From Chitinophaga pinensis (GTDB lineage: Bacteria > Bacteroidota > Bacteroidia > NS11-12g > UBA955): 64,000 nucleotides of DNA. Shown piece after piece: positions 33,723 through 56,043 of the stretch. The stretch lies in assembly GCA_945890895.1 (NCBI GenBank), contig CAMDDG010000009.1, positions 306 through 64,305 on the forward strand. Direction: 5' to 3'. How positions within the stretch are numbered: position 1 is the stretch's first letter; the number at the start of each line of letters is the position of its first letter. Position numbers and translations under genes: made by a program. The notes under the pieces were generated by a model. It was not told the DNA's origin. It ran no database searches and saw only the letters and a list, made by a program, of their open reading frames with translations.

Positions 33723-34178
33723 ATGAAAAAAGCAATATGGGTAATGTTAATTACCATTGGATTTATAGGAAGTAGCAAGGGTCAAATGGCTATTTCAGGC
33801 GGAATATTCGCTGAAAATCCTACTCGATTTAATGGTAGAATGATTACAGTAAAAAATATTCGCTTGAATTTAAATTCGCATAATTCCGTTCCTGGCACAG
33901 TTCCTCCAGTAAATCCGCCAGGTGGAAATGCGAATAATACCCCGATAGGAGGAGTTGGTTCAAACATCCAGCGATGCAATCCACCAAGAGGTTTTAAAAT
34001 GTTGGATGTAGAATTTATTGAAAAACCCGAGTTTGAAAGTTGTTTTTTTATCGCGGAATCTATGTACAATCAACTTAAGAAAGAAACTCTTGGACAGGGT
34101 AAAGTAGATGTACAATTAACATTTAGAGGCGATAATCGAACTGGTTACAATGTTATGTCTTATCGTTTAGGTAGATAA
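33723..34178 (+). CDS. small secreted protein, unknown family (paralog of 53564-54031)
   Basis: MKKAIWVMLITIGFIGSSKGQ is the signal peptide. The conserved block RCNPPRGFKMLDVEFIEKPEFESCFFIAESMYNQLKKETLGQGKVDVQLTFRGDNRTGYNVMSYRLG is shared with the paralog. A P/G/N-rich linker is present. Confidence 0.8.
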   Translation: MKKAIWVMLITIGFIGSSKGQMAISGGIFAENPTRFNGRMITVKNIRLNLNSHNSVPGTVPPVNPPGGNANNTPIGGVGSNIQRCNPPRGFKMLDVEFIEKPEFESCFFIAESMYNQLKKETLGQGKVDVQLTFRGDNRTGYNVMSYRLGR

Positions 34179-34214
34179 ATGAGTTAAATTACAGATTTCG
34201 TATTCGATATGATA

Positions 34215-34244
34215 AAAGGGCCGTCAAGAATGACGGCCTTTTTA
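34215..34244 (+). terminator. rho-independent terminator after the small secreted protein gene
   Basis: The hairpin ggccgtca-agaa-tgacggcc is followed by ttttt. Confidence 0.8.
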
Positions 34245-34287
34245 ATTTTGTGTTGTAAATTGCCAACCTATTCAATAAACCATAATA

Positions 34288-53563: not shown

Positions 53564-54031
53564 ATGAAAAAAATTACAACATTCTTCGCTATGGCTGCAA
53601 TGATGGTAGGTGCAGCTTACAGTCAAGTTACAATCCGTGGAATTGATTTCGCTAACAATCCTGCGAAATGGAACGGTAAGCCGGTAACAGTTAAAGGCAT
53701 TCAATTGAATATGTCGAATCATCAGGCAGTGGCTTCAGGTGCGGTTGCGCCAGCGGTAGTTGCTGCACCAGGTGGTGCGTTGAATGCAGCTCCCGGCGCG
53801 AATGGTCAAGGAACTGCGGTAGTTCGTTGCAATCCTCCAAGAGGCTTCAAGCAAATCGATGTTGATTTTATCGAAAAGCCAGATTATGAAGGATGTTTCT
53901 TTATTTCGGAAGCTATGTACAACGAATTGAAGAAGCAAACTGCAGGTCAAAACAAGATAGATGTACAATTGACATTCCGCGGTGATAGTAAAATGGGATA
54001 CCAAGTTACTTTCTACCGTTTAGGTAAATAA
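53564..54031 (+). CDS. small secreted protein, unknown family (paralog of 33723-34178)
   Basis: The signal peptide is MKKITTFFAMAAMMVGAAYSQ. The conserved block is RCNPPRGFKQIDVDFIEKPDYEGCFFISEAMYNELKKQTAGQNKIDVQLTFRGDSKMGYQVTFYRLG. The linker is A/P/G-rich. Confidence 0.8.
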   Translation: MKKITTFFAMAAMMVGAAYSQVTIRGIDFANNPAKWNGKPVTVKGIQLNMSNHQAVASGAVAPAVVAAPGGALNAAPGANGQGTAVVRCNPPRGFKQIDVDFIEKPDYEGCFFISEAMYNELKKQTAGQNKIDVQLTFRGDSKMGYQVTFYRLGK

Positions 54032-54061
54032 TAAAATCATTTTACACATTATTTCTGAAAG

Positions 54062-54089
54062 AAGGTCACCGTTAGGTGGCCTTTTTTTT
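54062..54089. terminator. bidirectional terminator between convergent genes
   Basis: The hairpin aaggtcacc-gtta-ggtggcctt (one G-T pair) is followed by a T-run. Confidence 0.7.
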
Positions 54090-56043
54090 ACAACTTTAAA
54101 TCTTTGAAGTCTTCTACTCCGTGATCTTTAAAAATCTTTCTTAGTTTACTTTGTACATTTCGAACATAAGCGTAACTAAGATTCATCAATACAGCAATTT
54201 CTTTGGCTTTGTAGTTTTCTAATGTTAAAGCCAATATTCTCATTTGTGAATCGGTGAGTTCTTCTTTGATTCCCAATTCGCTTAGTATTTCATCTACCCT
54301 ATACTCTTTAATTGGCGGGGGGACATGCGTGTCGACAGCAGAATCGATGAGCGAAATTTGTTCCAAAGTCTGACGAATTTCAATCATTTCGGGTAAATTA
54401 GAATTGGTCGAATTTCTAATAATCTGTAAAATGGCTCTACCATTACTAACAATGATTTCAGAAATGCTCATAATTTTGGCTTGAAGTTCTTTTTCGGTTT
54501 CCAAATGATCTAAATCGCGTTGTCGAGATTCCAAAAGCAACCGCTGCTGTTCAATTAAACGGGTCTTATTGGCATTTAATTTTTTTCCTTGAAACACCAG
54601 CGCAACCAACATTACAGTCATTAAAATGATTACAACAACTGTAAGGGAGAGTTCTTGTTTTTTGCGATCTAATTCGGCTTGAGAAGCTTCTAGTTTTTCA
54701 TTGAATTCACTCACCGTAAATTTTTGTTGTAAATCAGCTACACGGATACTATCTGTTAGTGCATAATGCTCAGATAAATGAACTTTTGATTGATCGGAGT
54801 ATGAATAAGCTTGAGCAAAATCGCCTTGCGATTTATAACCGAATTGCCTTAATTCAAAGTAATTGTATTTAGCAATGGGTAAGAGTTCGTTAAAGTGTAT
54901 ATTCGCCTCGGCTTCATTTATTAATTTGGAGAAAATGGAGTAGTTTTTTTCAATGTAATCCAGAATGGAAATGCTTGAATTTGTTAAAATTGTGGAATAA
55001 TACGTTACAAATTTGTTGGCATGTTCCGCCAAAAATTGCTCCATATTGACCGTGTTAATTTTGTATTTTTCCTTCAACATTTGACATACAAATCGTTTAT
55101 GAAAGAGTTCACCCTGATAAATAGGTTGAATTTCATTTTCGCTCAATACGCTCAATAATTTATCGGCTTCTCGGGGTTTTTGTACTTCCAATAAGTATCC
55201 AATGTAAGTTAATTTGGCAATTTGTCCCTCATATGTGTGATTCGTTGGATCAAGCAGCGTGCGGTTCTTATTGATGTAGTAATACGCTTTTTCTACTTTG
55301 CCGTCTTGTAAATAGGAAGTGGCAATATTGTTGTAAAGCATCGCATTATCTCGCGTTTCGGAATTTTTTAAAGCAATTAGAAAGTAATCGGCAGCTACTC
55401 CGTAAAATCCCCTGCTGGTTGCTAATGCACCCAAATTCAAACTGTAATCGTAAATATAATTGGCGAGTTTCACCTTAGAGGCGCGCTCGAATCCCATATT
55501 AAAATACTTATCTGATGAATCGAGTTCACCCACATAAAAGTGATAGCTACCATAAATATTGAACAGGGTCATTTGATAATAAAAATTATCTTCCGGCCCC
55601 TTGAATTTTTTTAAGTTACTTACAGCGATGGGTGTTAATTTTTCATCGAAATTCCACAAATAGGTGTAGGTAGTGTCTAAAACATAAAACGCATTGAGTG
55701 AATCATTGGGATGTTCTTTTAAGTATTGAGTTCTATAATTATGTAATTTTTCGTATTCTTTGGGATGATTGAAATACAAACGTGAAGTAAGAGAACTGAG
55801 ATACCATGCGTCTAGCGATTGTCTATTCTCAGAGTAATAATTCCAAATGGAATCTGCTGAGTTTACTTTGAACCGATAATAGAGCTCTTCACTATTGTCG
55901 TTTTTGGAGCAATAATTTAAAGTAAAAACAGATGCAATTGCAAAAATGAAAAGAAGTAAAATCCCTTTCAATCGATGTATAATTATATGGTATAACTGGT
56001 TTAGTTGAGGTATCATGAAAATTTGAATTAACCGACTTTTCAT
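54088..56043 (-). CDS. membrane-spanning one-component regulator (TPR-like sensor + TM + LuxR-type HTH), paralog of 34288-36171
   Basis: 651 aa. The N-terminal anchor is ILLLFIFAIASVFTLNYC. The centre is helical repeats and a coiled coil, followed by the TM segment LSLTVVVIILMTVMLVALVF. The C-terminus is MRILALTLENYKAKEIAVLMNLSYAYVRNVQSKLRKIF. Confidence 0.75.
   Translation of the reverse strand: MKSRLIQIFMIPQLNQLYHIIIHRLKGILLLFIFAIASVFTLNYCSKNDNSEELYYRFKVNSADSIWNYYSENRQSLDAWYLSSLTSRLYFNHPKEYEKLHNYRTQYLKEHPNDSLNAFYVLDTTYTYLWNFDEKLTPIAVSNLKKFKGPEDNFYYQMTLFNIYGSYHFYVGELDSSDKYFNMGFERASKVKLANYIYDYSLNLGALATSRGFYGVAADYFLIALKNSETRDNAMLYNNIATSYLQDGKVEKAYYYINKNRTLLDPTNHTYEGQIAKLTYIGYLLEVQKPREADKLLSVLSENEIQPIYQGELFHKRFVCQMLKEKYKINTVNMEQFLAEHANKFVTYYSTILTNSSISILDYIEKNYSIFSKLINEAEANIHFNELLPIAKYNYFELRQFGYKSQGDFAQAYSYSDQSKVHLSEHYALTDSIRVADLQQKFTVSEFNEKLEASQAELDRKKQELSLTVVVIILMTVMLVALVFQGKKLNANKTRLIEQQRLLLESRQRDLDHLETEKELQAKIMSISEIIVSNGRAILQIIRNSTNSNLPEMIEIRQTLEQISLIDSAVDTHVPPPIKEYRVDEILSELGIKEELTDSQMRILALTLENYKAKEIAVLMNLSYAYVRNVQSKLRKIFKDHGVEDFKDLKL

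Follow-up and report, generated by a model that had tools for sequence, protein, structure and literature searches.

Two gene pairs of a small exported protein and a TPR-LuxR-type transmembrane regulator in a Bacteroidota genome are probably juxtaposed independent genes

The two modules and their products

The window analyzed here, a stretch of 64,000 nucleotides from a Bacteroidota genome of 2.87 Mb in 163 contigs, contains two modules, each joining a gene for a small exported protein (small1, small2) to a gene for a membrane-spanning regulator with tetratricopeptide repeats (TPRs) and a LuxR-type helix-turn-helix (HTH) domain (reg1, reg2; Table 1). The initial annotation, whose coordinates for these four open reading frames (ORFs) were confirmed, had read each pair as a secreted ligand or co-sensor with its receptor. 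We favor, at a probability of roughly 0.6, the view that the modules are independent kinds of genes juxtaposed in a plastic region, and that they probably do not form a ligand-receptor unit. The distribution, promoters, terminators, architecture, and synteny of these genes were observed, and from them we infer all functions discussed below.

The products of small1 and small2 (P0001 and P0002) are clear paralogues, with 49% identity over 142 amino acids (E 4e-48). The start of small1 was placed at the ATG at 33723, as its homologues begin with MKK and the promoter falls within a longer ORF that starts at a TTG. An alignment of 24 family members displayed the layout described earlier, in which a signal peptide is followed by an N-terminal block (NP..FNG..), a variable linker, and a C-terminal block with two cysteines, which are invariant (C89 and C111). 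The linker forms a loop of 32 to 51 residues that is uncharged and consists for 71% to 92% of P, G, A, S, N, T, and V. The signal peptide ends ahead of an invariant glutamine, Gln21, directly after an AxA-like site, and this residue at position +1 fits cleavage by signal peptidase I under the Q-rule of the Bacteroidetes (PMC5837995). As the proteins contain no lipobox, no C-terminal domain of the type IX secretion system (T9SS), and no transmembrane segment beyond the signal peptide, they are most likely Sec-exported and periplasmic. The earlier word "secreted" is better replaced by Sec-exported and probably periplasmic. T9SS C-terminal domains are encoded in the source genome. A role of the small proteins as cargo of the exosortase or of the T9SS was rejected, given the absence of a C-terminal transmembrane or sorting tail and of a Por_Secre_tail domain.

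Neither P0001 nor P0002 matched any family in Pfam or NCBIfam, BOF included, in agreement with the first reading, which could assign them to no known family. AlphaFold2 models the core, formed by the N-terminal and C-terminal blocks, with a predicted local distance difference test score (pLDDT) of 85 to 90 and a strand order of beta-beta-beta-alpha-beta-beta, with residues 53 to 87 disordered. All top Foldseek matches were oligonucleotide/oligosaccharide-binding (OB) folds (Teb/Ten1/Stn1, anticodon domains of aminoacyl-tRNA synthetases, and SSB), but weak ones, at a best E-value of 0.012 and a TM-score of 0.43. A sequence search of the PDB with the small-protein profile gave nothing meaningful, and a viral fold search returned nothing below E 0.01. 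A disulfide between C89 and C111 possibly stabilizes the predicted barrel.

The regulators P0003 and P0004, encoded by reg1 and reg2, are distant paralogues whose C-terminal parts are 27% identical (213 residues, E 1e-13) and which also share a TPR stretch. A third regulator of the same build is encoded on another contig (C21:25475-27424), bringing the total for the genome to three. All three align end to end and share a cysteine that closes an N-terminal hydrophobic segment. The hydropathy profiles of P0003 and P0004 contain two such segments: the N-terminal one, whose closing cysteine is near-invariant, and a central transmembrane segment. P0003 matched TPR_12 in Pfam at 32.2 bits against a cut-off of 30.1, while P0004 alone stayed below threshold. 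Matches to GerE (PF00196) were below the cut-off of 23.5 bits for both proteins (21.2 bits for P0003 and 13 bits for P0004); the domain is carried by their homologues P0139 and P0140. A profile of the regulators searched against the PDB retrieved GerE (1fse, E 0.0084), VraR, and SdiA, along with consensus TPR proteins (E 1.4e-10). Outside the family, a class-wide search with this profile yielded only generic matches to the TPR part.

The AlphaFold2 model of P0003 (mean pLDDT 78) consists of an N-terminal helix, an alpha-solenoid at residues 33 to 373 (pLDDT of about 90), a helix of 90 residues (377 to 467) that holds the transmembrane segment, and a four-helix HTH domain at residues 565 to 623. 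Its TPR domain is closest in fold to RapJ-CSF, NprR-NprX, LGN, and domain III of MalT. Since the HTH domain must be cytoplasmic to bind DNA, the TPR domain would be periplasmic. Hydropathy, model, and domain matches thus bear out the architecture first proposed for these proteins, and support the view that they are one-component transcription factors spanning the membrane, with a TPR sensor in the periplasm, a single transmembrane segment, and a LuxR/GerE-like HTH domain.

Distribution of the small-protein family and of the pairing

The small proteins have few relatives: a profile search among 1.84 billion proteins found only 102 representatives (clusters at 50% identity). The family was present in 26/26 genomes of the genus to which the window belongs, in 1 to 10 copies each and often in tandem. 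Weaker relatives occurred in two other genera of the same taxonomic family, and none were found in twelve further genera of that family. By these searches, the small proteins are a genus-restricted, multi-copy, and undescribed family.

We compared the coordinates of all small-protein matches with those of all regulator matches in 27 genomes. Adjacency was found only in the source genome and in its closest relative, G118. Contigs from metagenomes added orthologues of module 1 (loci L008, L009, L017, L018, and L037) and of module 2 (L024 and L026, in which small2 orthologues of 86% to 90% identity lie in the same context). Among 20 further small-gene loci from 16 other genomes of the genus, not one had a match to the regulator profile or its HTH domain within 5 kb. 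Six genomes with 4 to 8 small genes contained no regulator match at all; two of these are 96% to 98% complete. Within the source genome, which has five small genes, the three outside the window comprise one gene ahead of a CRISPR (clustered regularly interspaced short palindromic repeats) array and one tandem pair beside a gene for a ccoI P-type ATPase. The former can be shown to have no regulator beside it, and the tandem pair is located at the end of a contig; likewise, no small gene accompanies the third regulator. Genome-wide co-occurrence had been proposed as the check on the ligand-receptor idea, and this comparison counts against it, as the family is mostly found away from such regulators. 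Judged by these genomes, only two orthologous groups, both from the same plastic stretch of the chromosome, show the pairing.

In a tree of the small proteins, the paired genes formed two well-supported orthologous clades within a poorly resolved group that also includes unpaired copies. On this tree the paired state must change twice, but only one of these changes is required by branches with good support; a scenario in which small gene and regulator came together once and were then duplicated, and hence one origin of the pairing, stays compatible with it.

The orthologue of small2 in G118 could be mistaken for a missing gene. At about positions 1,385 to 1,480 of this locus (L064, on G118:C31), a run of Ns breaks the gene after its first 12 codons. 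An absence of small2 from G118 was rejected, as the promoter and the start codon precede the gap.

Elsewhere, the family occurs in a variety of contexts. Arrays of four or five small genes adjoin OmpA/PorP/SprB genes or a cbb3/FixS/ccoI cluster, and a single small gene adjoins the gene for an extracytoplasmic function (ECF) sigma factor. Tandem paralogues lie next to genes for a ccoI-type P-type ATPase, FixS, and cbb3 oxidase in two genomes (C117:585-5117 in the source genome, and L015); in the former, a gene for a LiaF-TM-like membrane protein of 110 amino acids lies in between. The CRISPR array begins just 3' of the third small-protein paralogue and reaches the contig end (contig C26, about 30,100 to 32,171, outside the window; about 10,600 to 12,672 in locus L006), with at least 28 copies of a 47-nt repeat, GTTGTGAATTGCTTTCAAAATTGTATTTTTACGGATAACTCACAAC, and 30-nt spacers. 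Several metagenome-assembled genomes of the genus have been deposited as "uncultured Rhizobium sp." or "Chitinophaga pinensis" (L016 to L019 and L023), which are apparent mislabels.

Each small gene probably forms its own transcription unit behind a sigma-54-type promoter

An identical 14-mer, TGGCACGGTATTTG, precedes both small1 and small2 and is part of a sigma-54-type -24/-12 element. Compared with the consensus TGGCAC-N5-TTGC, its spacing is exactly GG-N10-G(C); the C at -12 is replaced by T or A in the elements of the window, and many paralogues carry the full TTTGC. Among a first group of loci, 22/29 family genes have the element upstream; in an independent set of 20 loci, it precedes 17/18 genes, each time between -48 and -52 relative to the ATG. 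In an alignment of the region upstream of module 1 from 4 genomes, it was the sole conserved stretch, the intergenic DNA around it having diverged. Strict matches to the element numbered 18 in the genome, against 12 expected from composition. The three best matches to a position weight matrix all belonged to small-protein genes, that of small2 being the best in the whole genome, although this matrix was trained on sites of the family. Beyond the element, no operator-like motif was common to the upstream regions of small1 and small2; one further 9-mer was shared, TGCAAAAAG.

Promoters of this type need AAA+ enhancer-binding proteins as activators. The source genome encodes RpoN (Sigma54_DBD, 179 bits, contig C96) and two enhancer-binding proteins with Sigma54_activat and HTH_8 domains, one of REC-AAA-HTH_8 and one of AAA-HTH_8 architecture. 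As sigma-54 requires such an activator, the predicted activator of the small genes is an AAA+ protein, rather than the adjacent LuxR-type regulator. The AAA-HTH_8 protein, which has no N-terminal sensor domain, is encoded directly upstream of lptE (C10:50,169-51,626; L029), and the same arrangement is listed for Flavobacterium psychrophilum (PMC9723704). In Bacteroidota, sigma-54 has been linked to proteostasis genes (PMC12316311).

Terminators complete these units. An intrinsic terminator separates small1 from reg1, and a second terminator-like hairpin (33631-33654) lies upstream of the small1 promoter. As hairpins bound it on both sides, small1 is probably monocistronic. In module 2, small2 and reg2 are convergent, and the hairpin between them was absent from the output of the terminator scan and was identified by eye. 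Read from these signals, each small gene is a transcription unit of its own, made up of a sigma-54-type promoter, an ORF, and a terminator.

Two further observations concern the surrounding DNA and the rest of the genome. An 18-bp tandem repeat, AAAGTAGAGTAAACATAT, of about 4.7 copies (33453-33546) runs across the stop codon of a LamG/T9SS gene, ahead of the hairpin at 33631-33654; the repeat is not conserved in L008, L017, or L037. Sigma-54-like elements were also seen 5' of genes for other small Sec-exported proteins, one of them of 161 amino acids, on contigs C2 (about 18,927), C27 (about 11,444), C20 (about 22,397), and C24 (about 30,382). Their positions suggest a wider, envelope-directed sigma-54 regulon in the source genome.

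Conserved neighbors of the regulators and the variable interior

The regulators have stable neighbors other than the small genes. Every reg1 orthologue examined is followed by a gene for a protein of 220 to 231 amino acids. The 231-residue protein of the window, which had no match in Pfam or NCBIfam, is 43% identical to its counterpart encoded 3' of a reg1 orthologue that shares 40% identity with reg1. As the most conserved neighbor of reg1-type regulators, this protein may be their real functional partner. Orthologues of reg1 at 35% to 40% identity occur without a small gene, and are either divergent from SusC/SusD genes or near a gene for a glycoside hydrolase of family 2 (GH2); reg1 in the window itself has no SusC/SusD neighbor. 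Orthologues of reg2 always abut the operon for a glycoside hydrolase family 65 (GH65) enzyme (L024, L026, L064 in G118, and L066 in G121), down to the 52% identity of the orthologue in G121.

The interior between the modules (36-52 kb) holds genes for an ATP-binding cassette (ABC) exporter, glycosyltransferases of families 2 and 4 (GT2 and GT4), UbiA, an exosortase, and a protein with a T9SS C-terminal domain. GC content is lower over the block at 37.2-47.5 kb (0.33 to 0.36). On a related contig of 34 kb (L037/L026), the order is module 1, a gene for a 229-residue protein, the exosortase operon, three PTL_trimer genes, a START gene, module 2, and GH65, with no ABC/GT/UbiA block. In L008, which has module 1 and the exosortase operon, fragments of insertion sequences (IS) between the gene for the 229-residue protein and that operon replace the block. 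The exosortase operon is the one part of the interior that recurs consistently between the modules or next to them. In L024 and L026/L037, three tandem PTL_trimer genes, some with an L-type lectin domain, lie where the window has the tRNA-Met and the exosortase/GT region.

By this comparison of gene order, the interior is a hot spot of gene turnover. As relatives carry the modules without the ABC/GT/UbiA block and its GC content is lower, the block is probably a later insertion between older flanks. The initial annotation had proposed that the two regulators control the 36-52 kb block. The comparative evidence argues against this, since the ABC/GT/UbiA part is absent from L037 and L008 and the stable neighbors of the regulators are the 220-231-residue protein, SusC/SusD, and the GH65 operon.

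Table 1. Predicted features of the two modules and their surroundings (positions in the window).
Feature	Position	Strand	Description
Sigma-54-type -24/-12 element TGGCACGGTATTTGT	33680..33694	+	29 nt upstream of the small1 ATG
small1 (P0001, 151 aa)	33723..34178	+	Predicted Sec/signal peptidase I export; probable OB-fold-like core, disordered loop, two conserved Cys
Intrinsic terminator, 14-bp stem and T-run	34213..34244	+	Between small1 and reg1
reg1 (P0003, 627 aa)	34288..36171	+	Signal/anchor, predicted periplasmic TPR solenoid, transmembrane segment 436-454, predicted cytoplasmic GerE-like HTH
P0141 (231 aa)	36325..37020	+	Predicted cytoplasmic protein of no known family; conserved downstream partner of reg1
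Accessory ABC exporter/GT2/GT4/UbiA block	37243..47492	+	Pfam matches; missing from module-bearing relatives
Exosortase operon	47485..51805	-	Exosortase 47897-48478; protein with T9SS C-terminal domain 48809-50680
tRNA-Met (CAT)	52481..52555	-	
START-domain protein	52693..53397	+	Conserved upstream neighbor of small2
Sigma-54-type element TGGCACGGTATTTGA	53505..53519	+	45 nt upstream of the small2 ATG
small2 (P0002, 155 aa)	53564..54031	+	Paralogue of small1
Hairpin GGTCACC-GTTA-GGTGGCC, then T6	54064..54087		Between convergent small2 and reg2; read from the sequence
reg2 (P0004, 651 aa)	54088..56043	-	Architecture as reg1; ~25% identity to reg1
GH65 phosphorylase/HAD (beta-phosphoglucomutase-like)/BadF-type kinase operon	56246..60162	-	Conserved neighbor of reg2

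A model of independent genes and its nearest counterparts

In the reading that we favor, expression of the small genes would be switched on by one of the two AAA+ enhancer-binding proteins, and the small protein would be induced under certain conditions to serve a binding or buffering role in the periplasm, by analogy with BOF/YgiW or ZraP-type envelope proteins. The regulators would sense periplasmic glycans and regulate their own stable neighbors: the 220-231-residue protein and SusC/SusD in the reg1 lineage, and the GH65 alpha-glucoside operon in the reg2 lineage. The ABC/GT/UbiA block would have been inserted between the modules later.

Known proteins resemble both halves of this model. 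The BOF/YgiW-YdeI proteins, which are OB-fold proteins, and ZraP, which is expressed from a sigma-54 promoter, are small stress-induced periplasmic proteins, some of which are encoded beside envelope sensors. The small proteins are similarly Sec-exported, with about 130 residues in their mature form, an OB-like predicted fold, and a sigma-54-type promoter. They differ in having no match to any Pfam family, BOF (PF04076) included, in their long disordered P/G/A loop and conserved cysteine pair, and in their number, with as many as 10 copies per genome and tandem arrays in a single genus.

The regulators most likely have an architecture like that of SusR, which resides in the inner membrane and combines a sensor domain in the periplasm with an HTH at its C terminus (PMC3878776). 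A SusR homologue is encoded together with SusC/SusD homologues and a GH65 enzyme in a polysaccharide utilization locus of Flavobacterium johnsoniae (PMC10316084). The likeness to SusR of Bacteroides thetaiotaomicron (BT3705) and to Fjoh_4435 of F. johnsoniae extends from the inner-membrane location, periplasmic sensor, and cytoplasmic C-terminal HTH to the susC/susD genes beside reg1 orthologues, the GH65 alpha-glucoside operon beside reg2, and the restriction of the family to Bacteroidota. We found no description in the literature of the periplasmic domain of SusR as a TPR domain.

Alternative explanations

The strongest alternative, which we nevertheless consider unlikely, is that in this sub-lineage the small protein docks onto the TPR sensor of the neighboring regulator and modulates it, with the disordered loop rich in P, G, and A as a possible point of contact. 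Such a co-sensor or ligand would connect sigma-54 control on the input side with a LuxR-type output. A number of observations point in this direction and weigh against the model of independent genes. In a genome of 2.87 Mb with five small genes and only three regulators, two of the small genes are each within 60-110 bp of a regulator, which is far above random placement (an estimated ~1e-5, for two independent events), and every orthologue with a readable neighborhood keeps the pairing (4/4 for module 1; for module 2, 3/3 along with the gapped copy in G118). Both proteins are predicted to face the periplasm, and the best structural matches of the modeled TPR domain are peptide-binding receptors (RapJ-CSF, NprR-NprX, and LGN), which would fit a protein or peptide ligand. 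CpxP and ZraP are examples of small periplasmic modulators of envelope sensors. Such modulators are a known theme (PMC9214523). In addition, the assignment of the small-protein core to the OB fold is weak, and the likeness of the regulators to SusR is one of architecture and context.

Against a co-sensor stand the distribution of the family, with 0/20 further loci paired and genomes of 4 to 8 copies devoid of a regulator match, and the reg1 orthologues of about 40% identity, which lack a small gene yet keep the 220-231-residue protein and SusC/SusD. Nor are the partners co-transcribed, given the terminator in module 1 and the convergent genes in module 2. Finally, the two small proteins are about 50% identical and the two regulators about 25%, with no sign of matched co-divergence.

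The closest precedent for a co-sensor is provided by the co-component systems VtrA/VtrC and ToxR/ToxS (PMC9214523), in which the gene for a transmembrane transcription factor likewise lies beside that for a small periplasmic, beta-rich protein. In those systems, however, the genes overlap and are co-transcribed, the pair always co-occurs, the small partner is a lipocalin-like protein tethered to the membrane, and DNA is bound by an N-terminal domain. Here, a terminator or convergence separates the genes, the further loci are unpaired, the small proteins are OB-like with no transmembrane segment beyond the signal peptide, and the HTH domains of reg1 and reg2 are C-terminal. The RRNPP receptors (Rap, NprR, and PlcR) are comparable in their TPR solenoid, to which that of reg1 is nearest in RapJ-CSF and NprR-NprX, and in the small exported product encoded next door. 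Those receptors belong to Firmicutes, where they bind short, re-imported peptides in the cytoplasm, whereas the TPR domain considered here is predicted to be periplasmic and its neighbor is a folded protein.

A variant that we regard as unlikely is that in this sub-lineage the sigma-54-induced periplasmic OB-like protein was recruited, possibly twice, as an extracytoplasmic co-sensor docking on the TPR domain of a SusR-type regulator. If true, this would be the Bacteroidota equivalent of a co-component system, assembled from unrelated parts, in which the signal of an enhancer-binding protein is coupled to a LuxR-type output.

It is very improbable that the small gene is instead a target of the adjacent regulator, which would act on the promoter of the small gene, for example as a repressor or co-activator, such that the small protein is an output rather than an input. 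Regulators commonly adjoin their own targets, and the promoters of small1 and small2 do share an identical 14-mer. This 14-mer, however, is the sigma-54 -24/-12 element, which is found family-wide, unpaired copies included, and depends on AAA+ proteins, which the regulators are not; the two upstream regions have no other operator-like motif in common. Least credible of all is joint control of the bracketed exosortase/glycosyltransferase block by both regulators: the modules flank the exosortase operon in the window and in L037, and module 1 adjoins it in L008, but the ABC/GT/UbiA part is missing from L037 and L008 despite the modules, the interior differs between relatives (L024/L026 have PTL_trimer genes, L008 has IS fragments), and more distant orthologues of both regulators lie in other contexts.

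Significance

These results caution that adjacency in a single genome is a poor basis for inferring a ligand and its receptor. Most useful among the new findings are the sigma-54-type cassette shared across the family and the conserved partners of the regulators. With these regulators, a poorly studied class of one-component envelope sensors in Bacteroidota gains two or three members, whose stable partners are sugar-utilization genes and an uncharacterized protein of 220 to 231 amino acids. Through its near-universal sigma-54-type promoter, the small-protein family is among the clearest predicted sets of sigma-54 targets in an uncultured genus of freshwater Bacteroidota. As few sigma-54 targets are known in this phylum, the promoters of the small genes would be useful as cassettes for tests of sigma-54 and its enhancer-binding proteins.

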